Positions 1 through 39,900 are shown, counted from the first letter of the whole stretch. The stretch: 50,540 nucleotides of DNA, filler included, from Sphacelaria rigidula (GCA_964200075.2; 3 parts of 3 records of this genome joined end to end with filler, not necessarily neighbours in it), one strand, 5' to 3'. The notes: generated by a model from the letters alone, not told the origin. A program made the numbers and translations.

Positions 1-1599
1 CTAACAATTCTAACCTCAGAAATTATTTCTGTACCCCTACCGTAGCATCACTCTCTATTGGAGGAAAATTATAGGAGAGTGGTACGGTTGGGGGGGACGG
101 GCTGCGTGGTGTGTTCCAGGAAGTGTATGGGGGGTTACGAGGATCAGAGCGATTAAGCGTGATTCGTCGCAAGTACGCCTGCCAGAATAACTTCTTGCAG
201 ATTCGGAGAGATGAAAATGAGCAGTGTGGAAGGATGTGTTTCACGTTGCTTCCCCCCCCCCCCCACCTTTCGTCATGCCACGTACCCAACGTACGAGACG
301 CCGTTGTCCATAGCATTGTAGGTGCAAGGTCGGGTAGGTGGTGAACGTACGCTTTATCCAACCAGGAACGAGGACGCACAGTGGGGTCGCGGGTGATTGA
401 CCCACACTCCGCCACAAGTATCAAGTCATTTGAACTTGGGGAAAAGTCACGATGACATGAACAGCAATTAGAGGGATACGCGACCCGCCTGTTGTGTGAC
501 ACCAACGGCGCATTTTCCAGGCGACATATAATCTGTTCTTTGGACCAATCGTTGCGGTCGTGCAACCGATGCTAGGGTGGTGGCCTTAAAGTGCTCACTG
601 AGTCTGCTGGAGCCGACAGCGGGTGGGTACGAGTGAGCATCACACAATCACCAGTTCGGAGAGTATTTTCGCTGGTGGTCTGTCCAAACGACAACAACGA
701 GGTTATCCGGGGTTCTAGCGTCGTCGGATTACCACTTATGATCATATTCAATGTCCATGATAGACCCAGAAAGCCTCCGGACGGTTTTCCTTATATCTCT
801 CGTAGACAAGCCAAGATCGCCCTCAAACTTGGCAGTTCGGTGGGTGATAGTGCCCCAACTTAGGGAATATTGCTGAAGATTATTTCGAAGGTTTCCTCCC
901 CTTTGACGACTCCCCAGGCGTAAAGCCCCCTGAACGCGGTACAGACTGCCTCAGAGCACAAGACTAAAAATGGATTTGTACTGGAATAGTCTAAGGAACA
1001 TTTGTACGATGTTTCGTTGCGAAACTGGACAAACCGATGCAAGGGGGTTGTGTTCACGTCGAACACGCCGTTCAATACTTTAATGAACTAGTCTAGTTCG
1101 GAGTTATACCGGCACGGTACACTTCAGCGTACTCATCCGCAAAACCTCACGCCGATTTTGGGAGTTAGATCGGTGCAAATATGACAACATGTACCTTTTT
1201 TAACTGTCACTGTGGACCACTCCCCTTCCTTAACCCCGAACTCCGCGCAATGGCGACGATCGCACTACGTACTGTAGTGGGTATGTGATGAAAAACCCAT
1301 GAGGCAAGGTATAACCCATGGCCGTCTCTGGAGGTTGCCATACCAGAAAATGAAGTAACCCATCCGAGACTGCCATCCATATGCAAGATAATCAATGCGC
1401 TTCGGGCCGGACGATCTCAGCAGGATACATCTCACCCTTCATGAGACTGGCGGAGCACATCGCGAAGCTTTGCGCTCGGCAATTGATTGCGAGTCTGGTC
1501 CCCCAAATGCGAAATCCTGGTGTGCTCCGTCCCGGCTTTGTAGCGAGGCGCGGCCGATGGTCTCATGACTGCCCCATGAAAGATCACGAGTATACTCCT

Positions 1600-1832
1600 A
1601 CCTGCCTCGGGGCGAGTCCGTGGTCCCAAGCGATCAACCCATCTCTACCCAGTACACGTCTAGCATTTTGGTCCCACGGATTGGGTCAGCACTCCCGCAC
1701 CGCGTCAACTTTCGTCAAACAAATGTAGCCAACTACGTGTGTGCTCAGGCACCCACGTATTTGACTGCCAGAATCAGATAATTCGAAGAACTCTCAACAC
1801 ATCGAGAATCGAACCATTAGATCACCGGGGCG
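1600..1832 (-). mobile_element. tRNA-derived SINE-like repeat, copy 1
   Basis: Shares gatcaacccatctct...cattttggtc...ggattgggtcagcactcccgcacc with 24710-24985; the minus-strand head has a B-box-like GGTTCGATTC. Confidence 0.65.
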
Positions 1833-2551
1833 CGGCGATATATATATAACCATGTGCCGCCAAATCAGCATACAGAAATGCTCACGTACATGGCCTGGTC
1901 TGAAAAAAACGGTCTGGGCTCCCCCTACCCTCATGTTATACTCTCAACATCTAGCTATTCAGATGCATGGCCGTGTTATGTCACCAGAAAACAACACATT
2001 CGAAACGATATTCGATCACGGGAGATATTGAATGATCTGACGCGGGCTAGGGATCAAAGAATTGAGAGATAGACGCTGCATTCGAACATATAGAACAGCC
2101 AGAGGGTTGGCAGGTGGTCACATGCGCTTGGACACCTTCGTACTGTCTACCCGCAAGTGCGGGCGCGAGGGAGAGAGTAGATGGGGTCCACCACGACACT
2201 GCCCGTACTCTGCAGATGCGATGAAAAGGCCGGTTCATACCCTCGTCTACCAACTCGTAACTTGGAGGTTGACCTTTTGCTGCGACCCATCGTACGGACA
2301 GTGGGTGTGGATTTGTGTGCGTGCGGTAGTGCAGCCCGTCCGTGTTGGAATCGGGTTCAGCCCCACAGACCTTCCAAGGGCAAATCTGCCCCAAATACTG
2401 CATAACACGCGGAACACTCAACGCTTGAATGCAGTCCTGATCCCTTGATAGATTGATTGCTGTACACGTATCTTGGGCCCGACCATGGCCAAAAGATGGG
2501 CGTAAACAAGGTGAACAAAATTCAACCGTCGCTCTGGAAAGGAAATCTGGA

Positions 2552-2579
<28 letters not shown>
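2552..2579. repeat. (AT)n microsatellite
   Basis: Direct reading. Confidence 0.95.
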
Positions 2580-2584
<5 letters not shown>

Positions 2585-2795
2585 ACACATAGAGTGGACA
2601 CCGGAAAACAAAATAAACACAAATATCGCCACAGAGCAACAAAAATGATACGAGAAGACTAGAGACGGAAAAGAATGACACTCCCTACCGAAAACATGTA
2701 GATACATACCAGAAAGAGAGTATACCCAGGAATATTGCAAGCAAAACGGAAGCAACCGTGGGAGCCATGACCCCCTCCCGGAAAGATTAACCTCG

Positions 2796-5700
2796 TTAAG
2801 GCTCGCACTGCTGACAACACTGCCCACTTGTGACAAATGTGGCCTGGATTTTGCGGCGGCTTGTTCAGTACACAGCTGACCGCGCGGAAGCACCCAACTT
2901 ACTGCAGCCGGGTGGGCCATATGACCGCCCCAGGGGGCTCTCGATACCGCCCCGCCCGCGTCGGCAGCCGGCGACTGATGTGTGCGTAGGGCTAAAACGA
3001 CTTCACGCTGTCTCAACGACTCAGAGGTGAAACGGGTTGGCTTTGCCCAACGCACGCTCTCAGTCAACCTTGGAACACAGGACCTGCACAACGACATCAA
3101 AACCACAAAAGGTTGTTCACACGTCAACACATATACCTACAAGGAAGTTGCCCTCCTTGTAGGTCTCTCACCTGGTCTTGCAACGAGCCCGCACGGTTGG
3201 GGAGCAGTGTGGCCATATCAGGGTGCTTCGGGCCAAGGACTGTCTCCTGCCTCGCCTCGCACCGCTCGTATAGACGCTCAGCCTCGGCCAACTTGCCCTG
3301 TAATATAGCAAAGGACGCAAAACCACCGCACGACAACCAACGTCGGACCTACAACGGGGGCGAGACGCTCGCGCCACCGCCATGCCCACGTCTGCAGCCG
3401 CCAACCGATGTGTGTGTAGGTCGAAAACCACCTCACCTAATCTCGACGACTCGGAGCTACAACCGGTTGGCTTCGCCCAACTCACCCTCTCAGTCGACAT
3501 TGGACCCCAGGATCTCGGCAACAACACCAACAACACCAACAACACGCAACGCCGTTCACGCGTCGGCACACATGACTACGGAAAGGTTTCCTCGACTCTT
3601 ACCTGCTGTTTCAACAACCCCGCACGATCGTTAAGCGTTGCGGCCAAATCAGGGTGCTCCGGGCCAAGAATCTTCTCCCGCATCGCCTGGCACCGCTCGT
3701 AAAGGCGCTCGGCCTCGGCCAACTTACCCTGCAATGAAGACATGACGCAAACACACCACACATGGTCAACGTCGAACCTGTAACGAGGCGAGACGCTCGC
3801 GCCATCGCCCCCCAAGCGTCTTCTGCAGTAACCAACCGATGTGTGTGCAGTACCGAAACTACTTTGCCCGATATCGACGACTCAGAGCTACAACGGGTTG
3901 GCTTCGCCCAAGTCACCCTCTCAAGTCAACCTTGGCCCTCAGAACCTGCGCGACGACACCGACACCACACGATGTCCTTCAAACGTCAACACACACCACT
4001 ACGACAAAGTTGCCCCACCTCTCACCTGAAGCTGCAACAAGCTCGCACGGTTGTGGAGCAGTGTGGCCAAACGAGGGTCTTCAGGGCCAAGAACCTCCTC
4101 CTGTATCGCCTGGCACCGCTCGTAAAGGCGCTCGGCCGCGGCCAACTTGCCCTGAAATGTATTATAGTACACAACGCAAAACCACCACATTTGGAGTCTC
4201 AGAAAATAAGATGAGAACTCTATGTCTTTGAAGGAATAGCAGCAAGGTATTGAAAAGGCGAGCCCACATCTGTGACCACGGTTTCGAGAGAACGAACAAG
4301 TAAACGGAAATAATTATACTAAGAACAGTCAACGTCGGACCTGCAACGGGCGCGAGACGCTCGCGCCACCACCCCGCTCACTCCTGTAGCAGGCGAAAGG
4401 TGTGGGTGCAGGGCCGAAACCACTTCACCCAATATCGACGACTCATACCTACCACGGGGTTGGCTTCACTCAACTCACCCTCTCAAGTCAACCTTGGCCC
4501 ACAGCACCCGCGCAACGACATCAACACCACTACGAGAAAGCTGCCTCGGCTCTCAACTGACTTTGCAGCAATCCCGCACGGTTGTTGAGCAGTGTGGCCA
4601 AACGAGGGTCCTACGGGCCAAGAACATTCTCCGATATTGCTTGGCACCGCTCGTAGAGGCGCTCGGCCTCGGTCAACTTGCCCTGAAATGTAGTACATGA
4701 CGCAAAACCACCACACAACAGCCGGTGTCGAACCTACAACGGCGGAGAGACGCTCGCGCCACCACCCCACCCACGTCTGCAGCCGATGATCAGACTGTGT
4801 GCAGGGCCGAAATTAGTTTACGCGATCTCGACGACTCAGAGCGACAACGGGCTGGCGTGCCCGAATCACCCTCAGTCAACCTTGGCCCACACGACCAACG
4901 CAACATCCACAGCACACAATGTTCTTTACACGTCAACACACACGACTACGAGAGAGTTGCCTAGGCTCTCACCTGATGCCGCAACACGTTCGCACGGTTG
5001 TGGAGCAGCGTGGTCAAACGAGGGTCCTCCGGGCCAAGAACCTTCTCCGTAATCGCCTGGCACGACTCGTAGAGGGGCTCGGCCTCGGAAAACTTACCCT
5101 GAAATGTAGTGGACGACGCGAAGCCACAACGCAACAGTCAGCGTCGGACCTACAATGGGGTTGACAGGGTTTGTGCCACCGCCCCGCCCGTCTGCCCCCG
5201 GCGACCGATATGTGTGCAGGGCCAAAACTACTTACTTGCCCGATCTCTTCGACTTAGAGATACAACGGCTTCGCTTCGCTCAACTCACCCTCTCCCCCAA
5301 CGTTGGCCAACACAACCAGCGCAATAAAATCAACACACACGACTACGAGGAAGTTGCCCGGCCCTCACCTGATGTTGCAACAAGAGCGCACGATTGTGGA
5401 GCGTTGCGGCCAAATCAAAGTGCTCCGGGCCGAGAACAATCTCCCTGATCGCCTGGCACCGCTCGTAAAGGCGCTCGGCCTGGGCCAATTTGCCCTGTAA
5501 TGCAGTTACGACGCAAAATCAGCACGCAACAGCCAACGTCGGATCTTCCATGGGGGAAAGACGCTCGTGAAACCCCCCGGCCCACGTCTGCAGCCGGCGA
5601 CCACTCTGTGTGCAGGGCCAAAACTACTTCACCCGATCTCAGAGCTACAACGGGTTGGCTTCACCGACGTCACCCTCTCGGTGAAAGTTAGCCCACGCGA

Positions 5701-8700
5701 CCAGCGCAACATCAACACACGGTGTCCTTCACACGTCAACGCAAACCACTACGACAAAGTTGCCCCACCTCTCACCTGAAGCTGCAGCAAGCCCGCACGG
5801 TTGTGGAGCAGTCCGGCCAAATCAGGGTGCTGCGGGCCAAGAATCTTCTCCAGCATCGTCTCGCACCGCTCGTAGAGGGGCTCGGCCTCGGCCAACTTGC
5901 CCTGTAATGTAGTTCTCGACGCAAAACCACCAGTCAACATCGGACCTACAACGGGGGCGAGACGCTTGCGGTACCGCCCCGCCCACGCCTGCCTTCGGCG
6001 ACCGATGTGTGTGCGGCGATGAAGGTACTTCACCCGATTTCCACGACCCAGAGCTACAACGGGTTGGCTTCGACCAACTCACCCTATCAGTTAACCTTGG
6101 TCCACACGTCAACGCACGACTACGAGAAAGATGTCCCGCCTCTTACCTGACGTTTCAACAACCCCGCGCGGTTGTTCAGCGTTGCGGCCAAATCAAAGTG
6201 CTCCGGGCCAAGGACCTTCTCCCTAATGGCCTGGCACTGCTCGTAGAGGCGCTCAGCCTCGGCAAACTTGTTCTGCAATGTAGTGAACGACGCAAAGCCA
6301 CCACATAATAGTCAACGTCAAGTTTACAATGGCGGCGAGACGCTCGCGCCACCGCCCCGCCTACGTCTGCCGCTGGCGACCGATGTGTGTTTAGGGCCAA
6401 CCCCACGGCACCTGGCCTCGACGACCCAGAGCTACGAAGGGTTGGCTTCGCGAAAATCACCTTCTGTCAACAATCGCCCGCAGGACCTGCGCAACATCCA
6501 CACCACACAATATCGATCACACGTCAACACACACGGCCACGAGAGAGTCACCCCGCCCTTCACCTGATGTTGCAACAAGCCCGCACGGTTGTGCAGCGTT
6601 GTGGCTAAACGAGGATGCTCCGGGCCAAGAACCTTCTCTTGCATCGCCTGGCACTTCTCGTAGAGGCGCTCCGCCTCGGCAAACTTGCCCTGCAAAGTAG
6701 TGCGCGACGCAGAACCACCACACGAGAGACAATGTCGGACCTACTATGGCGGTCAGACGCTCGCGCCACCACCCCGCCCACGTCTGCAGCCGGGGATCGA
6801 TGTGTGTGCAGAACCCAGACCACTTTACCCGATCTCGACGGCTCAGAGCTACAAGGGGTTGACCTCGCCGACCCGAACTCACTCTCTCAGTCACCCTTGC
6901 AATACAGGACGGCGAACAATATCGACACCCCCACAGTGTCGGTCACACGCCAACACACACGACTACGAGAAAGTTGCCCCGGTTCTTACTTGATCTTTCA
7001 ACAACCGTGCACGGTTGTGGAGTAGTACGGCCAAATCAGGATGCTCCGGGCCATGAACCTTTTCTGTTATCGCCTGGCACCCCTCGTAGAGGCGCTCGGC
7101 TTCGGCAAACTTGCCCTGCAAGGTAGCGCACGACGCAGAACCACCACACAACAGTCAACGTCGGACCTACAACGGCGGCGAGATGGTCGTGTAACTCAAG
7201 CACACAGCCATCGACCGATGTGTGTGTAGGGCCAAAACCACTTCAATACCGACGACTCAGAGCTTCAACGGGTTGGCTTCGCCCAACTCACCCTCTCAGT
7301 CAATCTTGAACCATAGGACCTACGCAACAACATCAACACTACACAGTGTCGTTCACACATCAACACATCACTACGAGAAAGTTCCCTCCGCTTTCACCTG
7401 AAGTTGCAACAAGCCCGCACGGTTGTTGACAAGCACGGCCAAGTCAGGGTGCTCCGGGCGGAGGACCGTCTCCATGATTGACTGGCACCGCTCGTAGAGG
7501 CCCTCGGCCTCGGCAAACCTACCCTGCAATGAAGACACGACGCCAAACCGCCAGACAACGTCAGACCTACAACGGGGCCGACACGCTTGTGTCATCACCC
7601 CGCTCACACCTGCACCCGCTGATTGATGCGTGCGCAGAGCCAAACTACTTCACCCAATCTCGAGGACCCCGAGCTAAAACGGGCTGGTTTTGACAAACTA
7701 AACTCACCCTCTCAAGTCAACCTTGGACCCCAGGACCTGCGCAACGACACCAACACCACATGATGCCGTTCACACGTCAACACACATGACCACAGGAGAG
7801 TTACCCCGCCTTTCACCTGATGCTGCAACAACCCCCCACGGTTGTTGAGTGTTGTGGCCAAATCAGGGTGTTCCAGGCCAAGAACCTTCTCTTGCATCGC
7901 CTGGCACTGCTCGTAGAGGACCTCCGCCTCGGTAAACTTGCCCTGCAAGGTAGTGCACAACGCAAAACCACCACACAACAGTCAACATCGGACCTACAAC
8001 GGCGGCGAGACGCTAGTGCCACCGCCTCGCCCACGTCTGCAGCCGGCGACCAAGAGGTACGACGGGTTGGCTTCGCACGAACTCACCCTCTCAGTCAACC
8101 TTGAAACATGGGACAGCGCAACAACCTCAACACCACACAACGTTCACACGTCAACACTCACGACTACAAGGAAGATGCCTCGGCTCTCACCTGGTCTTTC
8201 AACAACCCCGCACGATTGAGCAGCAATGTGGCCAAAACAGGATCCTCCGGGTCAAGAAGCTTCTCCTTCATTGCCTGGCACCGCTCGTAGAGACGCTCGG
8301 CCTCGGCAAACTTACCCTGTAATGTAGTACACAATCCAAAACCACCACACGACATTCAACGTCGGACCTACAACGGCGGCGACGCGCTTGTGTCAGCGAC
8401 CCGCCCACGTCTGCAGCCGGCGACCGATGTGTGTGCAGGGTCAAGCTTACTATGCCCGATCTCGACGACTTAGAGGTAGACCATGTCGGCTTCGCACGAA
8501 CGCACGCGTTGGCTGACACGACCAGCGAAATAACGACCACAAGAACTTTGCCTCGGGGCCCACCTGGAGTTGCAACAAGACCGCACGATTGTGGAGCGCT
8601 GTGGCCACATCAAGGTGCTCCGAGTCGAAAACAATCTCCCTGATCGCCTGGCACCGCTCGTAGAGGCACTCGGCCTCGGAAAACTTGCCCTGAATATAGT

Positions 8701-11700
8701 CAGCAGCGGGAGACAGTCGTTCCTAGTGAAAATCCGATTTGAAATAGAACTGAAGACAACCCGGATATCACCGCGCCTGTTTGTTGACCCGCACGGCAAT
8801 ACAAGGACGCTACGGGCCAAGGGACTCGTCATTAATACAATCGGATCACCTAAATTCCCCCAAAATGTTTCTTCATCTAGGACCCTAACATTTGGGTTAT
8901 CGAAATCCAAATTTGTAGGGCGTGTAGCAGTTATCAATAGCCATCAGTAGGTGAAGGAATGGAACCATATTTGGAAGATTTGGTGTGGATACAACGATTT
9001 TCATCCTCCGGGTTTTCATCCTCAATGGAAAGCTCCATCCTCAATTTCGATGATCGGCTGCGATGACACGCACACCTCCCTGCTGCATTACATCGCCCGC
9101 ACGATCTGCTCATCTTTCATTTTCGCGTTAAAATTGTAAAAATGCAACACAGACGGCCCACCCTGGGGGTGACCGTATAGATCGAGACGAAGCCAATCTA
9201 AAACGCACAGTACAGCAGTACAATGCTGTTTAGTACAGTGCGGTGTTGTCTTTTATTTCCCGTTGTTGCGTTCGTTACGTTTGTCTATGAGTATCACCAA
9301 GAATCAGACTACACCAAACCGTTCGACAGCATCACCTTTTCCTACCTCCAGTTGCGAAAATTAATCTTTGGACTGCCACTTCGGTAGGCCATCTCGGTGT
9401 TCCAATTTTTTTTTTAATAATACGCGCATGAAACACGAATGACCCATCCTGAGTGTGGCCGTCGTCTGTATATGGACAAAGCCTAACTATACCGTACAGC
9501 ACAGTGCAATGCAGTACAGTACAGCGCAGTACACAGTGCTATCTCCTCTGTACCCCCCGCTGCATTCTTCCCCTCGTCTATGGGTACCACCACATATCAG
9601 AGTGGCGCCTCTTCCTCACACCAGCTGTAAAAAAGCGACGCTTAATCACTAGGGTGGGCCATCGGCGTCTTGTGTTCATTCTTCGAGTCAAAATCTCTGG
9701 AGACGGTCACCTTTTCCTACAACCTGCTGCAAAGTTGAAACCTCCGGCCCCCAATTGAGTTATCTGGGTTTCGCATTCATTTTTCGAGGGAAACGTATGC
9801 CGATACAACATATGGCTGACCCTGGGGAGAGTGGCCCTTGCCCGTGTATTCCCGAGGTATACGTTCAAGTCGCAGTGGAACGAGGCTGTCGAGACGGCAC
9901 GGCGGCGCTGGTATAGTTAACACAACAGACAAAGAAAATAGCACAATTCAGTCACCATGATGTTGTCTGTTCAAGTACACGCCATATTCTTTGCCTTGGG
10001 TTCCCTGTGCGGCTGTGTTCACAAACTGCGGCGCTTTTCTCAACAGAATATATCGGAGTGCACTACATTTGGACGTGCGCACGCACCGAAACGAAGTTAC
10101 TCCGATTCAGAACTCTCCTCCGCGGTTTCCCCCCGAGCCCCCTCAGTCTTTGAGTATTTTTCACTTGCACCGATTGGGAACGGCGCGTTGCGCGGGGCAC
10201 TCTATCGATAGATTTTGCCCACGCGGTCCTCTACCGTTACGTGTGCGATTCGAGCACTTGTTGTTGCGTTGGGTGTTTTAAACCCCAATGCATCATACTG
10301 CAGTGGCCATTTCAGGGAACGTCTCGCGGTCAGACCAATAAGCCGGAAAATACATTTTTTTTCAGTTTTAGAGTGTACGCGTTAAAAGCACCTAGACAAG
10401 GCCACCGCTATAGGAAGCGTGTGGATGTTGAGCAAGAGTATGCATGGTGTGAACAGGGAGGGCGTCGCCTGCACGAGCGACTCACCCGTCGAGAGATTGG
10501 GGTCCAAAAATGTATCTGAGTGGAGCATCCCAGGACGGTGAAGAAACAATGGGTATCTCGTCTATGGTCTTCACGGTGTCCTCGAACAGCCTCTTCACAT
10601 TTTCTGCCCCGATTAACACAGGTAGCTGTAGTTGTAAGAATGCAGTCCTCTCTGTTACTGTTCCTACTTTTTTCCCCTTAGAGCGTATTTGAGTTTCGTT
10701 TTTGTTGGGTACGTCTATCATGAGACTACGTTTGGACCCCGGGGGGGTCAGTTAAAGTGCGACAATCAATCATCAATCAAAGTCCGTGGCGACAAAAGTT
10801 TCGTGTTGTAGGTTGTGGCGGAAAGAAGTCGGCAAACTTCGTAGTCTCAAGCGTACCGTCTGTACACATGTGTTGCATGGGTTGACACCGGCGAATAAAA
10901 TATACCGTAACACACCCAGTCATCGATATATATCAACCGTGGGATTGCGCTACGAAAGGAAAGGACGGGCAGCAAGATGCGGCCGTGGTAACTGTTCGTT
11001 GCAACGCACCGAGCGGACATCAACATGTCTCCCAGAACCCACACCGTACGCACCTGAGCGTCACCCACGTCCCAAAGCGCTGGGTAGAACCAGTGCTTCA
11101 TGCCAGCAGCGTCGTGCCCATGGTGATATCGTTGCTAACGATGAAGTTCTGGGTTTGAGTACAACAAGTTACACCGTCACGTTTTTTGCCCCTAAGAAAC
11201 GTGCTCCTTCGGTACAGAATCGTTGGGACGGCAACAGACCACAGACACTTTTTGTTCCGGAGAATGTTCAGGCACAATGATTGAGAATATGTGCTACATC
11301 CGTTCTTTGAAGAGCATCGGGAGAAAATGCACATCATTGTCTGATCGGGCTCATGGGCAGGAAAAATCTTGTCCACAATTTTTCGTCATACCCCATGTTG
11401 TCAAACGGAATATGTGAAGTTACATCGGGTGCGAATATTATTTTTCTCAAACACGCTCCCTTGAGTAAGGGCACTTCTCATAGACTATTTCTTACGGTTG
11501 TCTGTGGGGGGAGAGGCATCACGTTTAAACAGGGAATATCGCCAGTACATGTCTTGGATACGTTGCATTATCTCACTAAGAGGAGTCTAACCCAAACTTC
11601 TGATTCGCTTGGCTCCAAGGTTTCGAGGATGGCTTCCGAAACAAAAGACGGCGGGACATGAAGAAATATAGGATATTCGCAGTAATGGGCATTTATTTCT

Positions 11701-14700
11701 TGGCGTCCTCACACCGGGCTCATATTTCCTGTGTCTGTGTCCAACCGAGTTTTCTCCTGGGGGCAATCCTCCATACCTCGAACCAAGCAAATCAGAAAAG
11801 TGGGCTAGACTCCTCTCAGTGAGACGATGCGAAGCGTCCGAGACGTGCGGTGGCGATCTGCTTCAAGAGGGGGTCAAAGGTCGTGTCAAACGTCCCAAAA
11901 CAGGAGAATACGCCCCCAGAATAACCAACCGTATATGAAATGTCAAGACATGTGATGAGCGATCACGTTCGAAAAATGGGATTGGAACATTACAATGAGG
12001 TTCAATTCCAAAATAGTGATTTCCCTGACCTCAAGTAATGACAATTGACTTTCATATTAGACATTATACCTCCCGGCCACCCTGAAACTCTTTTGGGATG
12101 TTTTCCGCCTTCCGTTTCCGCAATGGGCAGTTTCCACCAAAACTCAATAGAATGCAGCAGCTGTCTCGTTTTCTGACACAAGTTTACTCCAGGCCGGAAT
12201 GGTCGTGACAAACACACGGAGAACAAGAACCCACCTGTAGACGAAACAGTCCACCGATAAGTGCATATGCGTCGGCCACGTCTGTCGTCTCAGCTCGACC
12301 CAACTCCAGCAAGCTGGCTCTATACCTCTCCACCCCCAGCTGCTCATTGCCGGACAGCTCCTCCAGTGATCGCCACAAACGAATCAACGCGTATACATCC
12401 GTGCTCAGCCCCTCGTTCTCCTTAAACTTCCGGACCACAGAAAGCCTGCTCAAGTATCGCGTTTGACGCCCCACAGCACCCTCGACCAACTCATGCCTCT
12501 CCTTACCTTTACACTCAAGTTTGATAAAGTCCAACAGCAGGTCGTGCACGTAAAAGGAGCCTTCCGCCTCATGCAACAGTGTATTCTGCGCAAGGAAATC
12601 AGCTTCATTCTGCGCACCTTTGTCATCCTGCGACGCGATATGGTCATGACAAACAAGTCGGTGTTGGGCGTGGGTGATCCTATGAGTTTCACGCAACTAG
12701 TGTTCCGACGGCTCCAGCTGACAGCAAGGTCTCCTCGTAATAATGTCACGAAATCCTGAACTCCTACTTGACACTCGTCCACCATGAGTAGTCTACATGG
12801 ACGAGGACTCGCATTGTATCGACGTTCAACCTATGCCTCCCAAACGCCGTATGGCAGGTGAAAGATTGTATACTGATATCAACTTGTTCCGGCATCACAC
12901 CAGAAACAAACGCTTTTTGAATCACGATCAGCCTAAATTCTCCTCCAATAGCTGGTAGCTTGATCCCGGCAAACGTTTTGAGCGAACGTGCTGACCACAC
13001 GAAGGGCACACCAAACTTCTCACCATACCAGGCAAACATGAAACGAAAGTGTATGCTCACAGTGCACATATATCGAGCTATGGAAACTATCCGGCATACG
13101 GACAAGACCACTCCGTACATGGTAATGAGTCTGGCTCCATAAGATTCCGCTCATCTCACAAGCATCACCGGGCAGCACGTATGTACAAAGGTCAGAAGTC
13201 TGCGACCGATGCAACGGCGCTATCGAATCAACCGAACCTTCTCCCAGAGCGTGGCCAGCATAGCAGTTGATGCCCAAACACCACGGGCCAGCACAACCAG
13301 ACTCAGGAACATGTCTTGCTGCTCTTGACCCAACTCTTCCAGGCTTACGGACAGCACGGGATACAGTGACCTCTTGGACTTGTCGTCGGCGATGTCTCTG
13401 CTCATCTGGAGACCTAGCCGGGTTGCTTTCTTCGCTTTTATCTCTAGGTGCAGCTGGTGCCACGATACAGCAGAGTCTGGGCTTCCGGTAACACACGGGA
13501 GTGACCCTGCAATAGCAAGGGCCAACGCCAGCCGCCCGCATTCCTCAGCAACCTACGACGGATAGATCATGACGGAGAACACCGACAGAACAACACAGGT
13601 CGCGGATGCAGTCCGGCGAGTCTAGAGGAACTTCCAACTATATCAAAACATGGACTACCAAGACAACACCGCTTACAGTCTCATTTTGACAGCGACAAAT
13701 TTCAATCTGTAAATCGGTACATTATTGCGTCATACAAGACATCAGCAATCACATCAGACATTGATATGGGTGGGACCATGTTCTCGGTTGACAGACGAGG
13801 ATGGCTTGCACATCTCAAACGCTCTACCGTGAACCAGTGGCCGTCATACTTGTACCTGGTCAGCCTCCCTCTCCGGAAGTGCCACTGCGCCGCTCTTCGA
13901 CTTCAGCAGCTGCCGCGCCTCCACATGGTCCATGCTTCCCACCTCCGTGCACCCCCCCTGCATGGCAACTACTGAGCGGACACGCGTGGTCACCAGCAGC
14001 TGAAGTCCCGTGAGCATCAGCAGATTCACAATATCGCGCTGCCATACATCGTCCACCACAACCAGGCGAGGCAGGCCATCTTCTGACATGGTTGCAGTCA
14101 AGCTCCGGATCACCTCGTCCTCGCTGTCGAAGTAGAGCGGCCCCGTGGGAGATACTTTAACCTTGGCGGCTAGCCCCTCAAGGAGAGCTAGAAGTTGAGT
14201 CTCACCAGCTCGTCCTACGCTAAGCCAGTAGACTCCTCCCTGAAAGTGCTTCAGCACATCTGGGTTGCGAACGACTGCAGATGCTAGCATTGTCTTGCCT
14301 GCTCCCCCCATACCAAATAGCGCGTACGGAGCACTGCTAGCATCTGCTGCCGTGAGTTTTGAAACGATCTCCGACACGAGAGCAGTGCGCTCTACGAAAC
14401 TTGGAGGTCGCGAGCGCGCTTCAGGCGGAACCCTCGCCATACGTCTAGGCGCGGAGGAGTGGGTCAGCTTGGTGCGTATAGCGCTGGCGTCCGCAGCTAT
14501 AGAAAGCGCGGCGGCGCTCGTCGCCATGGTCAAGATTGTCTCGAGTGCCGCCCTGTGCGTTTTGATCCTTGTTCTGTCTCTGGCGTGCAGAGGCAGCCTT
14601 CGCCGAGGAAAAGAACGGCCCCGCTTGGCGTCGAACTGGATGGCGGTTTGATGGATGTTGGTGATCTCTTTTGTCACCTGCTGCACAGCGGTCTGGATGT

Positions 14701-15448
14701 GCGCGGGGAGCTCCGGCGCACGGGCATTGTCCAGTACGATACTCGTTATCAAGACGCAGTAGCTTAGGAGGTCAAGTAGTTCCTCCCGTGCAGCAGTGGC
14801 TCCTTTCACGGCCTCGAACAGAGCACTGAGAACAGCACAGGCGGGCTTCACAGCGTCGATATTGACCGCATTCACCATGAGGGCGAGCCCCTCAATTACC
14901 ACCCCGGTGGCAGTCTCTCCGGCTGCTGCCTCCGCCGTTTCCGCCCGAAGGAGGACAGCTTGATACCACGGTCTATTCTCTTCGATGACCTTCTGCGTCT
15001 TTTCTAGTGCCTAATCGACGAGGTAACAACACGCGTTATGTAGTAGGCTGCAGGTGTGAACCATCTTTCTCTGTTTCGACGCCAAACCTAGGTGGCTCAA
15101 CGCTGCACTCATGCACAGAGCCCCAGCCTCGAGCCAACGCCAACCAAGGCACAGCCTGTATGCACGGGATGTCCATGTCATATCCTAGCGTCATTCCCCG
15201 TCAAGATCTTCAGTTAATTTCAGAATATTCCAGAGTTTCTCACAGATAACTCCACATTTCTCCACTGGCATCGCCAAAAAGCATATGCTCGGTCTACTAA
15301 TGATACCCGTGTTCTCACCTGTTCTCTTATTTTGTCACATACCGCCCACCAGTACATTTCTACGTCGCATACACCACATATTGCTGAGCACATCGAATTC
15401 GTCGAATCTCACCTGGACCGGAGTGCCCACGATGACCGGGGATACCAT
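2796..15448 (-). CDS. NB-ARC-TPR (NLR-like) protein, spliced gene: N-terminal helical domain + NB-ARC + 13 intact TPR exons
   Basis: Exons in transcript order: 15413-15448, 13856-15010, 13238-13552, 12235-12627, TPR exons from 8564-8689 down to 3172-3297, tentative stop exon 2796-2843. All junctions are GT-AG and phase 0. NB-ARC motifs occur in order: P-loop GMGGAGKT, Walker B LVVVDDVW, LLVTTR, GLPL-like CGRLALALAIAG, MHD-like FYVHDLL. First and last exons are less certain. Confidence 0.9.
3172..3297 (-). CDS. TPR exon 14 (GKLAEAERLYERCEARQETVLGPKHPDMATLLPNRAGSLQDQ)
   Basis: 126 nt, AG/GT flanked, phase 0-0. Confidence 0.85.
3603..3728 (-). CDS. TPR exon 13 (GKLAEAERLYERCQAMREKILGPEHPDLAATLNDRAGLLKQQ)
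   Basis: 126 nt, AG/GT flanked, phase 0-0. Confidence 0.88.
4026..4151 (-). CDS. TPR exon 12 (GKLAAAERLYERCQAIQEEVLGPEDPRLATLLHNRASLLQLQ)
   Basis: 126 nt, AG/GT flanked, phase 0-0. Confidence 0.85.
4557..4682 (-). pseudogene. Dead TPR cassette 11 (pseudo-exon)
   Basis: GKLTEAERLYERCQAISENVLGP*DPRLATLLNNRAGLLQSQ: in-frame TAG at 4611-4613, and the donor reads CAG|TTGAGA instead of CAG|GTGAGA. Confidence 0.85.
4973..5098 (-). CDS. TPR exon 10 (GKFSEAEPLYESCQAITEKVLGPEDPRLTTLLHNRANVLRHQ)
   Basis: 126 nt, AG/GT flanked, phase 0-0. Confidence 0.88.
5369..5494 (-). CDS. TPR exon 9 (GKLAQAERLYERCQAIREIVLGPEHFDLAATLHNRALLLQHQ)
   Basis: 126 nt, AG/GT flanked, phase 0-0. Confidence 0.88.
5776..5901 (-). 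CDS. TPR exon 8 (GKLAEAEPLYERCETMLEKILGPQHPDLAGLLHNRAGLLQLQ)
   Basis: 126 nt, AG/GT flanked, phase 0-0. Confidence 0.88.
6147..6272 (-). CDS. TPR exon 7 (NKFAEAERLYEQCQAIREKVLGPEHFDLAATLNNRAGLLKRQ)
   Basis: 126 nt, AG/GT flanked, phase 0-0; first codon is AAC instead of GGY. Confidence 0.85.
6564..6689 (-). CDS. TPR exon 6 (GKFAEAERLYEKCQAMQEKVLGPEHPRLATTLHNRAGLLQHQ)
   Basis: 126 nt, AG/GT flanked, phase 0-0. Confidence 0.88.
6990..7115 (-). CDS. TPR exon 5 (GKFAEAERLYEGCQAITEKVHGPEHPDLAVLLHNRARLLKDQ)
   Basis: 126 nt, CAA|GTAAGA donor, phase 0-0. Confidence 0.88.
7398..7523 (-). CDS. TPR exon 4 (GRFAEAEGLYERCQSIMETVLRPEHPDLAVLVNNRAGLLQLQ)
   Basis: 126 nt, AG/GT flanked, phase 0-0. Confidence 0.88.
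7817..7942 (-). CDS. TPR exon 3 (GKFTEAEVLYEQCQAMQEKVLGLEHPDLATTLNNRGGLLQHQ)
   Basis: 126 nt, AG/GT flanked, phase 0-0. Confidence 0.88.
8191..8316 (-). CDS. TPR exon 2 (GKFAEAERLYERCQAMKEKLLDPEDPVLATLLLNRAGLLKDQ)
   Basis: 126 nt, AG/GT flanked, phase 0-0. Confidence 0.88.
8564..8689 (-). CDS. TPR exon 1 (GKFSEAECLYERCQAIREIVFDSEHLDVATALHNRAVLLQLQ)
   Basis: 126 nt, AG/GT flanked, phase 0-0. Confidence 0.88.
11493..11933. mobile_element. Foldback/MITE-like long inverted repeat in NB-ARC intron 4
   Basis: tctcactaagaggagtctaacccaaacttctgattcgcttgg pairs with ccaagcaaatcagaaaagtgggctagactcctctcagtgaga; outer ends tacggttg / caaccgta. Confidence 0.7.
12235..12627 (-). CDS. NB-ARC-TPR exon 4: winged-helix/MHD region and first TPR half-repeat
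   Basis: CAG|GAT acceptor, CAG|GTGGGT donor, 393 nt; FYVHDLLLDF motif; ends DVADAYALIGGLFRLQ, resembling the C-terminal half of the array unit. Confidence 0.88.
13238..13552 (-). CDS. NB-ARC-TPR exon 3: ARC subdomain (VAEECGRLALALAIAGSL...LATLWEK)
   Basis: TAG|GTT acceptor, AAG|GTTCGG donor, 315 nt, GLPL-like motif. Confidence 0.88.
13856..15010 (-). CDS. NB-ARC-TPR exon 2: N-terminal helical bundle + P-loop/Walker B (385 codons)
   Basis: Open frame between acceptor GATTAG|GCA and donor CAG|GTACAA; contains GMGGAGKT, VVVDDVW, LLVTTR. Confidence 0.92.
15413..15448 (-). CDS. Probable first coding exon of the NB-ARC-TPR gene (MVSPVIVGTPVQ)
   Basis: ATG plus 12 codons ending CAG|GTGAGA; phase 0 matches the acceptor at 15010. 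Confidence 0.55.
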
Positions 15449-16050
15449 GACAGCGCTTTGTAAAAAACCTAAGCACGTGGAAGAGTCGCGTTCGGCGATC
15501 GACAGAGGGAAAGAGAGGTAGCTCAAGCCGACGGTCCGTCGGTCCATTCACTGTGTACTACTGCCGTTGTTTCATACGCGTGGGGATCCCATAAAAGTCG
15601 ACAGGCCGTAGGGGTGTTGGCCCAACGTTGCATAATACTCCGTGTAAAGAGCGAGCAAATTACATACCGGGGGAAACATAGATTCATCCCTTGGAACAAC
15701 GGACTTGTCCCAAGTGAGGAACAGCGATGTGTAACTGAAACATGAAAAACACAACACGGTCACGTCATCGTGGCGAGTTTTCCGTTCAACCCTGAGCGAA
15801 GCTATTTCGTCCGAGGAACAAAGTTGCTCGCGTTGTTTCTCGGTTTTCGGAGGACGGCGGGGGAATTTTTCACACGATAGTAGCCTCCTCGTTTGAAGCC
15901 ACTTTCGAGTGTGCTCGTGGCGACAAAATGCTTCATGTTTTAACCTGTGCTCGCCGCGGGGAGGGGAGGGGGAGGGGAAGGGAGGTGGCCATGGTTGTAA
16001 GTATTATCTCGCATGCCGTAGTCACGATACCGTTGACCTCTCATCCGTAC

Positions 16051-16786
16051 AGAGCCGGAACGGGGCACACCGGGTGTCGAGGGACTAGGCTCGCAATCAA
16101 TCACCAAGCGCGAAGAGCCGTGATGTGCTTGGGAGTCGCTTGAAGGGTGAGCTGCATCATACCGAGATTCTTCGGTCCGAAGCGTACTGTATATCTTGCA
16201 TTTGGACGACAGCCTCCGATGGGGAGTTATGCTATGATACGGGGCGGTGTATTTTGAGTATTTTCTCCCAATAAATTCCATCTCAAATCTTCGTTGAAAG
16301 CAGCAACGTTTGTTCAAATGCGATTACTACCAGTAAGACACATTCATACCACTAGACACCGTTCCTACCCAAATAAAAACGCGCTTTGTTGATCCAGGAA
16401 GAATTCGCTGACGATCGCGAAAGGCGCACGCCCCTTCGTTAAAAACGTTGAAATCACAGGACTATTAGCCGGTGACACGGTTGCGAAATGATGCTTAAGG
16501 TCGAAGGGTTAAGGACAAGAAGGCGTGGGGTCAACCGCTTCTCGTCTCGTGTTGCTTCTGCTTGTTGCAATGTCAGATGATGCAGTTATCGTTCAAAAAT
16601 TGTAGGTTGTTCCTATTAATTCCTCTTTCACCTCTCATTGAGAGGGTACGCGAAGAGTGGTATCCCCCGCACGCCCAACCCCCTCCCCCCTCCCCCCCCC
16701 CCCCCCCGCCCCCCACGGCGCTTCGCGCTTGGTGATTGATTGCGAGCATGGTCCGGCGAAAGCCCGGCGTGCTCCGTCCCGGTTTT
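16051..16786. repeat. Two inverted copies (16051-16122 and 16714-16786) of a ~70-nt dispersed repeat; third copy at ~1467-1540
   Basis: gctcgcaatcaatcaccaagcgcgaag is the exact reverse complement of cttcgcgcttggtgattgattgcgagc. Confidence 0.7.
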
Positions 16787-16886
16787 NNNNNNNNNNNNNN
16801 NNNNNNNNNNNNNNNNNNNNNNNNNNNNNNTTAATTAATTAANNNNNNNNNNNNNNNNNNNNNNNNNNNNNNNNNNNNNNNNNNNN
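16787..16886. other. Artificial contig linker (N44-TTAATTAATTAA-N44)
   Basis: Exactly 100 nt with a six-frame stop palindrome in the centre; identical to the linker at 33670. Confidence 0.97.
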
Positions 16887-33669: not shown

Positions 33670-33769
33670 NNNNNNNNNNNNNNNNNNNNNNNNNNNNNNN
33701 NNNNNNNNNNNNNTTAATTAATTAANNNNNNNNNNNNNNNNNNNNNNNNNNNNNNNNNNNNNNNNNNNN
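33670..33769. other. Artificial contig linker (N44-TTAATTAATTAA-N44)
   Basis: Same 100-nt structure as at 16787. Confidence 0.97.
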
Positions 33770-36940: not shown

Positions 36941-39900
36941 ATGGAACGAACAGAAGGCGTCGCAGCAGTGCGGGCTTATGGGTACAAGTGAAGGTGACAA
37001 CTACTCTTGATCATTTGGTTTGTGCTCGTCCCCTGAAAGTAGTCAAAACCGCATGCCAATTCTGTCCATTTGGCATTCCTCGACGACCACCATATCATCA
37101 TTTATTGAAAGTCCCACACTACCACCCCCTTTCCCCCCCTCCGTCTTCTTCCGAAAAAAAATATCGCCGACCCAGTCTACCGCCAGCTCCAGGTCTCGGA
37201 GCGCATCAGTTTCTGGTTGGAATCAGCACCGAGCGAGCCTCTCCACTGGTGGCGATGGTTCCTCGGGAATCCCCATCCCCTGTCCTGCGCTTGTGGGTAC
37301 CCGCGTGTTGCACGTCGCCTGTGGGTCGAGACACACTCTGGCGGTAGTTGCTGGGGGGGAAGCGTACAGCTGGGGCTGGGGGGCATGCGGTCAGGTGCAG
37401 TACAGAACAAAACAGTGTGAGGGAAAAATATCACCCTCTTTCATACGCGCCTTCGCACTCAGAAACAGAGATGCACTATAGGCATACTGGAGTTTTATGT
37501 TGTCCACAGTTTTTTTTTGCTAGCCTGTGACCGTGGAAGGCGTCCGCATCAGATGCTCAGTACGAATGTACCGCGCAGATATCGGAACGGTTTTTTAATG
37601 TGAAGGCAACAACAACAACAACAACAACAACAACAGGTGGACCTGAAAAGTGAACCGCGAATAATCAGAACCTGAGATTCCCAAGGATAGAGCTTTCTGG
37701 AATATGAATCCGCTCATGTGTAGATAATCCATGCACGAGACATTTTCGCTCCCTCGTGGCAGGAGCTAAAGCACTCGGACCACACCATAGTGTGTGTGAT
37801 TTGTTGTACCTTCACCCTTGCCTCCACATCCAGCCCCTACCCCCATCCTCCGGACGAGTCCGTAGTCTCAGGGTAGCGACCCGTCTGTCCCCCGGTACTT
37901 GCCTTGCTCTTCTTTGTCCAGCATTGGACAATGACCACTCCCGCAGCCCGTCCTTATTTCGTGTTTTCTTAGGCCGTGTCTTATAAAAAGAAAATCGACT
38001 ACATGCGGTCGAATCGAATAGGTCGTATTTGGCTCGTATCTGATACGTCCACGGAATTTGTGTTCTCAAATGGCTTCGAGTCCGTTTTACAATTATTTTC
38101 CCGGGATGGACAGGGTGAAAAACAGAAAAGCTTAGCTTTTTTGGTTAAAAACAAGCGCATGACTCCTATGTTACAGACAACCATGCCAGGTACCACCTTT
38201 TCACAGAGTGGTGCAAAACCCAGATGGTTCATTCTGAACCACCAGCTCAACCCTCCAGCACAGAACACGAAGTGAGCACAGTGATACATACACTGCAGTG
38301 ATACGGAACCGACACCGACACCCTCTTGGCATGATGCGTTTCTTCTTTGTTGGCGAAAACTTGGGCCTCTAATTTGCCGTAGGGTCCACCGACGAAATTG
38401 CGTGTAGGGGTGGGCGACCGAATTGCTGACACGCTCATGGACAGTACGAGTAGAGGCGGTGCAAAACTGCACGTGGTTCGAATCTTCTTCACATCCTCCT
38501 GTATGCAGAGAGTACAGACGGCTCTGCTGTTTGCTGTCTGTATGTCACGTTGCCCGCTTCTTTTCCACATCGCGCCTGCATGCTGTACAAGACACACACA
38601 CTATACAGACAGTACAGGCAGCCCTACTGTACTGTCTGTACTGTCTATTGAATACAAGTAAACAAGTACTGCCTCACGAATTTTGCTCAGCTTGGTCGAT
38701 CGAAAGCGTGCAAATTCGCTCGGACTTGAAACACAGTAAAACGAACCAAATTCATTTCGCCTCACGAACTCGTTCGAGTCGAAAACAAAACGATAGGACA
38801 CGGCCTTATTCTCGCGTTTTTAGCCGACGGAAACCGTGAATAATACTCCGCTGCCGCGATTCCATTCCACACAACCCAAAAACGGAATCCGCCCCAAATT
38901 TGTATCGTTGTACCAGAGTGACCGCCGGAGTGCAGTAGCATAGTGCATCTGAAGTGTAGTCCAAGCAATGCAGGTACACCACTCGATACGCTCATCTGTT
39001 TCGCTGCATGGTGTTCGGGATCGATTTTGCAGTTAGGACACGGCGACGATCACTGTTCGGCGGTACCGCGCGTGATTGAAGCGTTAAGAGCAAGCGACAG
39101 CCAGGGCACCGGCGGTATCGTGACTGGCGTGTCTGCGGGAGGAATTCACTCGGCGGCTGTACTGGAAGGCGGAGGTGTCTACACCTGGGGAGGAAGTAGC
39201 TACGGCCAGGTGCTCTACCGAAGATGAAACCCTCATGGACTGGGGAGAGCAATCGAAAATCCAAATTGTAGTGTAGGGTACCACTGTAACCTGAGCAGTT
39301 AGGTTGTCGTGACTGTTTCAATATCGTATACTATATAAACCAAGCAATCACCACTAAGGCAAACGCCGCCGCGCCTCTGTGGTCTAGCTATCGTAGTACA
39401 CTTTTATAGTAGACAGCTGAAGGCAGGGGGCTGCGGGCTCAACCCCGTTGTATACGGTCTTTTGAGCAGAATTCGGTTTCCGTTGGTGGAAGCGAGAGAA
39501 GGCTACTCGCAAAGGAAGTTGACGAGAGTGGACGGGGTGCAGGAGTGCTGCCCCACTCCTTGATGCTAACGCCTCAGACAGGTACCGGGCGATGGACGAG
39601 CTGGTCTGTTAAGGCTACGAATTATTCTCGACGAAGGGGAGGGGTTTGAAGACATGATAATGATGATGATGATGATGATGATATATACGTGTTTGATGGA
39701 TGTCTCTGATCTGCTCTTTCCGTTCCCCGCCTTCCCCCTCCTTCTACTGTTTTTGGCAGCTCGGGCTCGGGCCACAGGTGACGGCAAAGGGTGCAGAAAC
39801 CGTGCCTCAACAAGTCATGCTGCCGCCGCCATCTCAAAACGGAGAAAGCACCGCTGGATTGCCGAGACGCAACAGTCTGACTCGCGTACTCAAAGGAAAT

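Follow-up and report, generated by a model that had tools for sequence, protein, structure and literature searches.

A Sphacelaria rigidula NB-ARC-TPR gene with a 42-residue-per-exon TPR array and one skipped, decayed cassette

On the minus strand of a 50,540-base stretch of DNA from Sphacelaria rigidula, a brown alga of the order Sphacelariales, lies a gene that we take, with a probability of about 0.85, to be an expressed brown-alga NB-ARC-TPR gene whose product would combine an N-terminal helical bundle, a STAND ATPase and a TPR solenoid encoded by 13 exons, one further, decayed cassette being skipped. The whole stretch analysed, which we call the window, holds the 5' 12.5 kb of this gene, and about 1179 residues of protein are encoded so far. 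We propose that the repeat array would have been built by duplicating in tandem an exon-plus-intron unit about 417 nt long, and such duplication would by itself make the introns homologous to one another; the copies would then have drifted apart at close to the neutral rate, their amino-acid variability being concentrated at a few repeat positions, and the spliceosome would leave out the one unit (unit 11) that has decayed.

The cassette array and its transcripts

A six-frame motif scan found 14 TPR-like units at 3172-8689, each of 126 nt (42 codons) and phase 0-0 (Table 1), and motif scans of both strands of the whole window found no TPR unit besides these 14. Acceptors are pyrimidine-rich CAG, a GT donor is present in 13 of the 14 units, and the live donors are GTRAGR-like. 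Read against the repeat consensus, each exon contains one 42-residue period, made up of helix B of one TPR, a linker and helix A of the next; we take this assignment of helices A and B over from kinesin-light-chain-type TPRs as an assumption. The original prediction had described one TPR per exon, which holds in the sense of one period per exon, but the exon borders divide the repeat between its two helices rather than enclosing it.

Twelve of the 13 array introns measure 245-305 nt, and the one after unit 11, enlarged by some 110 inserted nt, measures 405 nt. The insertion occupies 4190-4298 (minus strand), between dead unit 11 and cassette 12, and the other 12 array introns are without it. 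Over their full length the array introns are homologous to one another, with a mean identity of 73% (range 59-83%), while the flank upstream of unit 1, used as a control, scores 39-48% against them. When an nhmmer profile of the 13 array introns was run over the 50.5 kb, it matched those 13, a truncated fourteenth copy (2934-3154) and, on the far side of the insertion, a 32-nt stretch forming the tail of the intron that follows unit 11; it found no match in the gene's four other introns or elsewhere in the 50.5 kb, which agrees with the earlier claim that the array introns resemble each other and the remaining introns are unrelated. The possibility that the array introns are a dispersed mobile element was considered and rejected, as their profile matches nothing outside the array in the 50.5 kb. 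Tandem Repeats Finder detects the repetition at periods of 416-431 nt (scores 1051-1829), and the nhmmer E-values of the array matches run from 1e-35 to 1e-83; together these exclude a chance origin of the array.

Both ends of the array show remnants. The truncated intron copy covers profile positions 10-230 of 296, and its homology ends at about 2934-2940, the point (about 2940) at which the feature had been said to begin; after this copy (2934-3171) neither an acceptor nor a further cassette was found. At the other end a relic of a fifteenth cassette has 31-42 of 66 nt identical to the cassettes, and this weak relic is the only addition that a cassette DNA profile run over the whole window makes to the 14 units.

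Unit 11 is an inactivated exon, leaving 13 usable cassettes: its reading frame is interrupted by a TAG, and its donor site reads TT, not GT. The original count of 14 phase 0-0 exons of 126 nt is thus right as to how the units are built, but one of them is no longer an exon in practice. A joint at 4150|4972, which removes 821 nt, links cassette 10 directly to cassette 12 in one of the transcript data sets described below (X5) and leaves unit 11 out. This skip keeps the reading frame, and it provides an actual instance of the predicted loss of a cassette without a frameshift.

Evidence on splicing comes from four public runs (X3, X4, X5 and X7), present as assembled contigs of one study and mapped to 1500-16500. 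X3 and X4 behave as DNA and are not the window's source. Fourteen of the 15 joints listed have CT..AC ends (GT..AG on the minus strand) and lie exactly on predicted exon borders. These 14 are the 12 joints that link the 13 live cassettes in genomic order, the joint of exon 3 to exon 4 (12626|13237) and that of exon 4 to cassette 1 (8688|12234, 3545 nt), the last two being present in both X5 and X7. All 14 occur in X5, 12 of 14 in X7 and none in X3 or X4, whose contigs read straight across the introns. For the live-cassette junctions alone the figures are 12 of 12 in X5 and 10 of 12 in X7 (9/9 and 8/9, respectively, within cassettes 1-10). X5 is identical to the window, and X7 has several differences from it, variants that are common to X3 and X4; the same junctions are therefore used in two genotypes. 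The dominant transcript contains all live cassettes in genomic order. The RNA-like runs are without cover at 15528-16028 and over most array introns.

Gene model and predicted domains

The gene is represented in public databases by an NCBI entry, 'unnamed protein product, partial [Sphacelaria rigidula]' (P0001, 1226 residues), which matched a 388-residue query at 100%. We find that P0001 contains errors in the array at three places, each contradicted by the transcript contigs: cassettes 3 and 4 are shortened and fused through an odd splice, some of the intron that follows cassette 6 is read as coding, and a made-up splice brings in the first half of dead unit 11. P0001 stops at cassette 14 without a stop codon.

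Upstream of the array the model has four exons, all multiples of three in length (36, 1155, 315 and 393 nt), and all introns are phase 0, including the four that do not belong to the array. The residues of exon 1 have similar counterparts in a relative that is 59% identical (P0003), where they run straight into those of the next exon. RNA-like contigs also span 15062-15441 unspliced at low depth, so the intron at 15011-15412 is supported by annotation and homology. The donor of exon 2 is placed at 13856|13855 by homology with another relative, P0008, or at 13850|13849 by the annotation, and is phase 0 either way. The translated end of exon 4 is a lone helix A (...AYALIGGLFRLQ).

The large open reading frame at 13847-15010 holds the Pfam NB-ARC match (E 6.4e-14, 52 bits against a cut-off of 23.5, residues 210-375 of the exon frame; E 1.1e-15 on P0001), and on P0001 Pfam also finds TPR_12 in 12 stretches and TPR_10 in 10, both at E 1.2e-115. 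The HMMER comparison with these families that had been proposed as a check thus came out as expected. The names given in Table 1 to the NB-ARC motifs (GMGGAGKT, LVVVDDVW, LLVTTR, CGRLALAL and VHD) are those that we presume to apply. The ATPase motifs are intact, and G233, G236, G238 and K239 are nearly invariant in 45 relatives. With those 45 relatives aligned, AlphaFold predicts the fold of exon 2 with a mean confidence (predicted local distance difference test, pLDDT) of 82.9. Foldseek places the predicted nucleotide-binding domain closest to Apaf-1 (1z6t_A, E 1.8e-9), followed by NRC4, ZAR1, Sr35 and CED-4 (to 1e-7), with 66 matches at E<=1e-3. The gene belongs to a large family, counting 3882 proteins with E<=1e-3 and 57 with E<=1e-30; a search among longer proteins brought up no more than the gene's own entry and a single unrelated protein, which is weak evidence.

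Residues ~48-185 of the large exon are predicted to form a four-helix bundle (pLDDT 83.6, predicted template-modelling score 0.74). When it was compared with 48,161 chains by VIA-align, a scale on which helical bundles under a Z of ~13 may share only a common arrangement, the bundle matched MLKL 4btf_A at Z 10.9 (root-mean-square deviation 2.2 over 98 residues), the MLKL N-domain 6ux8_A at Z 10.6, AtMLKL3 at Z 9.3, the CC-R domain of NRG1.1 at Z 9.1 and the CC domain of MLA13 at Z 8.9; the top row was a designed helical repeat, at Z 11.5. The Pfam family MLKL_N (PF22215) is found in 3 of 42 members of the gene family at E<=0.05, with a best E of 4.2e-4, and an Atlas cluster in which 36% of members carry MLKL_N scores 0.85, which is a lead only. 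Pfam assigns no family to the window's own N-terminal region, Foldseek against PDB finds nothing at E<=1e-3 for the N-terminal bundle, and a PDB sequence search with the N-terminal domain gives one match, at E 0.91. Taking these results together, an MLKL/CC-like executioner domain is plausible, at about even odds. A survey of full-text literature, which did not take in Teng et al. 2023 or supplements, found no description of the N-terminal domain of the brown-alga family or of a link to MLKL/HeLo.

Table 1. Positions of the array units, exons and motifs of the Sphacelaria rigidula NB-ARC-TPR gene, counted from the first base of the window.
Feature	Position	Strand	Remarks
Exon 1, first coding	15413-15448	-	ATG at 15448, 12 codons, donor GTGAGA; equals N-terminus of P0001
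Exon 2, predicted N-terminal four-helix bundle (~14456-14869) and NB-ARC	13856 (or 13850)-15010	-	Pfam, AlphaFold
P-loop GMGGAGKT	14291-14314	-	exon 2
Walker B LVVVDDVW	14042-14065	-	exon 2
LLVTTR	13982-13999	-	exon 2
Exon 3, ARC	13238-13552	-	315 nt, phase 0-0; in P0001; joint to exon 4 in X5 and X7
GLPL-like CGRLALAL	13517-13540	-	exon 3
Exon 4, winged helix/linker	12235-12627	-	393 nt, phase 0-0; first TPR helix A at end; joints on both sides
MHD-like VHD	12541-12549	-	exon 4
Intron, 3545 nt	8690-12234	-	unrelated to array introns; probable dispersed repeats and relic cassette; spliced in X5 and X7
Relic of fifteenth cassette, weak	8771-8836	-	82 nt upstream of cassette 1; riddled with stop codons; nhmmer E 6.6e-5
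TPR cassettes 1-10 with homologous introns	4973-8689	-	126 nt each; junctions in RNA-like contigs
Unit 1	8564-8689	-	AG acceptor
Unit 2	8191-8316	-	AG acceptor
Unit 3	7817-7942	-	AG acceptor
Unit 4	7398-7523	-	AG acceptor
Unit 5	6990-7115	-	AG acceptor
Unit 6	6564-6689	-	AG acceptor
Unit 7	6147-6272	-	AG acceptor
Unit 8	5776-5901	-	AG acceptor
Unit 9	5369-5494	-	AG acceptor
Unit 10	4973-5098	-	AG acceptor
Unit 11, dead	4557-4682	-	acceptor intact; TAG 4611-4613; donor TT 4555-4556
TPR cassettes 12-14 with introns	3172-4151	-	joints 3727|4025 and 3296|3602 in X5 and X7
Unit 12	4026-4151	-	AG acceptor
Unit 13	3603-3728	-	AG acceptor
Unit 14	3172-3297	-	AG acceptor
Truncated fourteenth array-intron copy	2934-3171	-	starts with GT donor; nhmmer match 3154-2934, E 1e-53

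Some further features of the window may be mentioned. Very high depth in all four runs was seen at 8514-9515, 10518-11018, 11520-12020, 1500-1720 and 16029-16500, and many loose contig ends lie at 9060, 10733-10772, 1686-1723 and 16082-16127; the appearance of these stretches suggests dispersed repeats or mobile elements. Three of the stretches belong to the 3545-nt intron. On the plus strand, open frames at 37011-37481 and 40970-41410 show to the eye RCC1-like motifs (...HVACGSRHTLAVV..GEAYSWGWG...), which we take to be the RCC1 repeat motif, and they suggest a separate plus-strand gene. Runs of N mark scaffold gaps at 16787-16886 and 33670-33769 (each a pair of 44-N blocks with 12 bases between) and at 42302-42311 (10 N), and the first of them falls at the end of the contig that carries the NB-ARC-TPR gene.

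Alternative readings

Several observations count against the reading given above, and they are set out here beside the alternatives that they favour. The original prediction held that the array is a combinatorial receptor repertoire, varied by alternative splicing, by intron-mediated recombination or by both. In its splicing form this would mean that one gene yields many TPR combinations, and the cassettes are symmetrical phase 0-0 exons of equal length, so that any subset of them keeps the frame. The skip of unit 11 demonstrates that the spliceosome is able to link cassettes that are not adjacent; Ectocarpus ROCO genes have splice variants with differing repeat content (PMC11378527), and Teng et al. 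2023, to go by its title, concerns splice variants of NB-ARC-TPR genes. The joints listed are 15 of 42, contigs drop rare isoforms, and the 'RNA' label of X5 and X7 is a guess, the splicing itself marking them as RNA; minor isoforms may exist beside the dominant transcript. Among those 15 of 42, however, there is no exon-skipping joint other than the skip of unit 11; every live cassette is linked to its neighbour across the two RNA-like runs, and the sole cassette passed over is the one that lacks a donor. All 13 live cassettes have equally good splice sites, and nothing marks any of these cassettes as optional. A splicing-based repertoire is on this evidence distinctly unlikely.

The alternative in which homologous introns drive ongoing germline or somatic recombination, altering the number or order of cassettes (the 'adaptive immunity' idea of Zambounis et al. 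2012), turns on the age of the units. Exons of different units are 79% identical (range 74-87%) and introns 73%. Over the 78 pairs of the 13 live cassettes the nonsynonymous divergence (dN) is 0.20 and the synonymous divergence (dS) 0.42, a ratio of 0.48, and the Jukes-Cantor distance between introns is 0.33. The introns thus diverge about as fast as silent sites, which makes their homology a trace of exon-plus-intron duplication, and the nearness of 0.33 to 0.42 argues that there has been no recent homogenisation. The units differ by 21-27%; no two units have an exact tract longer than 42 nt in common, the median being 19 (91 pairs), and tracts so short would offer homologous exchange little to work with. 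Variation between the amino-acid sequences falls mainly at repeat positions 8, 12, 17, 37 and 41, and the rest of the scaffold is conserved. By these comparisons the units are old, with no sign of recent recombination at this array. A test of incongruence between exons and introns found even the two halves of the introns uncorrelated (rho -0.23, Mantel p 0.87) and the units arranged in a star without tree signal, and incongruence therefore carries no information on shuffling.

Some observations do favour recombination. X3 and X4 each have a contig that links 7355 to 3991 with 8 foreign letters between; 7355 is nt 43 of the intron after cassette 4 and 3991 is nt 35 of the intron after cassette 12, so that the two points are roughly in register. 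A record of X7 links 6608 to 5420, in register within cassettes. The relic cassette and the truncated last unit point to past gains and losses, and cassettes are more alike within the gene (likeness 0.68; protein-level identity 57-83%) than they are to the cassettes of three relatives (0.47-0.58). The relative P0008 has much more uniform cassettes (0.85), and it would appear from these values that arrays expand or homogenise gene by gene, the present one not recently. The 8 letters in the 7355-3991 joint match neither intron, however, and a paralogous locus or a short repeat match explains that joint equally well; both it and the 6608-5420 record may come from paralogues or from a rearranged copy of the array. 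Across cassettes 14-13, 11-9, 8-7 and 2-1 the listed X3 and X4 contigs keep to the order of the window, and according to PMC11378527 no somatic recombinants have been reported in brown algae. We consider ongoing recombination at this locus highly improbable. With the live cassettes joined in genomic order, and with units that are old and free of signs of recent exchange, the combinatorial repertoire finds no support here in either form, and it is not refuted.

An expressed gene might also be a transcribed pseudogene, decaying or truncated, rather than a working receptor. In the window no stop codon or terminal exon was found after unit 14; the last repeat unit breaks off at about 2934 without an acceptor, and translation continued through the last donor meets a stop after 15 codons. 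Decay has already claimed one cassette, the dN/dS ratio of 0.48 is fairly relaxed, and five of 24 Ectocarpus NB-ARC loci were counted as probable pseudogenes (Zambounis et al. 2012, PMC3341825). A tblastn search with four full-length relatives revealed no convincing terminal exon below 3172 or elsewhere in the window (best E 0.25). Low-depth contigs of X5 cover 1686-2266 and 2601-3151. A contig of X7 extends past cassette 14 by 738 letters that find no place in 1500-3170; with these letters unplaced the 3' end of the gene model stays open, and a chimeric contig is a possibility. On the other side, about 3.5 kb of coding sequence in 17 exons is open, the ATPase motifs are intact, splicing is accurate in two genotypes, and the X7 contig does carry sequence beyond cassette 14. 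Base 1 of the window is a contig end, which by itself explains the missing 3' end. Since exon 4 ends with a lone helix A, a terminal exon that begins with helix B is expected, and in the relatives P0008 and P0036 a short capping helix follows the last cassette and closes the protein. The most economical reading is a last exon situated past the end of the contig, and we regard a pseudogene as very unlikely.

The proposed workings of an intact product are drawn from Apaf-1 and from plant and fungal NLRs. By analogy with these the TPR solenoid may keep the ATPase switched off and may be the part that binds a ligand; oligomerisation would follow upon nucleotide exchange, and the clustered N-terminal bundles would be the output, possibly through membrane damage and cell death. 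For the brown-alga gene we infer ligand sensing, oligomerisation and cell death from this analogy, and the immune role of brown-alga NB-ARC-TPR genes is itself putative. It is unlikely that the array is still being reshaped by intron exchange and that, at the same time, the N-terminal domain is a true membrane-disrupting executioner of the MLKL/HeLo type. Were the array being reshaped, the 7355-3991 joint would be expected from a tandem duplication of eight cassettes or from exchange with a paralogue; were the executioner true, brown algae would possess, as plants, fungi and animals do, a STAND switch coupled to a four-helix-bundle killer.

Relation to known systems

The reading of the locus as an expressed NB-ARC-TPR gene with 13 usable cassettes places the exon-per-repeat NB-ARC-TPR architecture in the Sphacelariales. 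Its default product is the full ordered array, from which a decayed cassette is dropped cleanly with the frame kept, and its old units speak against 'highly dynamic' shuffling as a rule for all loci of this kind. Should the N-terminal bundle prove MLKL-like, the gene would offer a testable output mechanism for a candidate receptor family.

The closest comparison is with Ectocarpus, in which 24 NB-ARC-TPR genes were described, 13 of them with a TPR domain made of 42-residue exons, together with high rates of gene birth and death, diversifying selection and a hypothesis of somatic recombination (Zambounis et al. 2012, PMC3341825). Like those genes, the Sphacelaria gene has an NB-ARC domain followed by C-terminal TPRs, with each 42-residue period in its own exon, and it shares the repeat consensus GK.xEAE.L[YF]...G.[DE]...[VI]A..L.N.A.LL..Q, the concentration of variability at few repeat positions, and the presence in introns, on the coding strand, of TPR exons inactivated by a stop or a lost splice site (PMC3341825). 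It differs from them in belonging to the order Sphacelariales and in having an old, diverged array. In the window there is no TPR on the non-coding strand, as judged by motif scan and cassette profile, and no clustering with other NB-ARC genes within 50 kb. From its Pfam matches, predicted fold, 42-residue exons and consensus the gene thus appears to be an ordinary member of the described brown-alga NB-ARC-TPR family, in the subgroup with 42-residue exons, as had been proposed when it was called NLR-like and assigned to the class of Zambounis et al. S. rigidula is among the species sequenced by Denoeud et al. (bioRxiv 10.1101/2024.02.19.579948), where NB-ARC-TPR orthogroups are described as expanded. 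The architecture, the inactivated exons and both routes of diversification (exon shuffling and alternative splicing) have already been published for brown algae. The description of the diversification mechanism as unresolved was a fair one, though a hypothesis of alternative splicing for the family was already in print (Teng et al. 2023, Plant J 114:246, as cited in PMC11378527 and PMC12879055).

More distant systems share parts of this design. The LRR-ROCO genes of brown algae have one 72-nt LRR per exon, a ROC-COR GTPase as the switch and exons of phase 2 (PMC3341825, PMC11378527), and ROCO loci, unlike the Sphacelaria locus, have repeats on the non-coding strand. With Apaf-1/CED-4, NRC4, ZAR1 and Sr35 the gene has in common the predicted NB-ARC fold and the order of helical output domain, NB-ARC and C-terminal repeat sensor; it is unlike Apaf-1/CED-4 and the plant CC-NLRs in that its sensor would be made of TPRs rather than of WD40 repeats or LRRs, and sequence identity is 15-28%. 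Fungal NB-ARC-TPR NLRs, which PMC13449251 compares with the brown-alga genes, also join NB-ARC to TPRs, and in Podospora the number and content of repeats are thought to diversify recognition; the Podospora repeats, however, are nearly identical and lie in one exon (PMC13449251), whereas those of Sphacelaria are 57-83% identical at the protein level and are split by introns. A second paper on fungal NLRs likewise brings in the brown-alga genes for comparison only.

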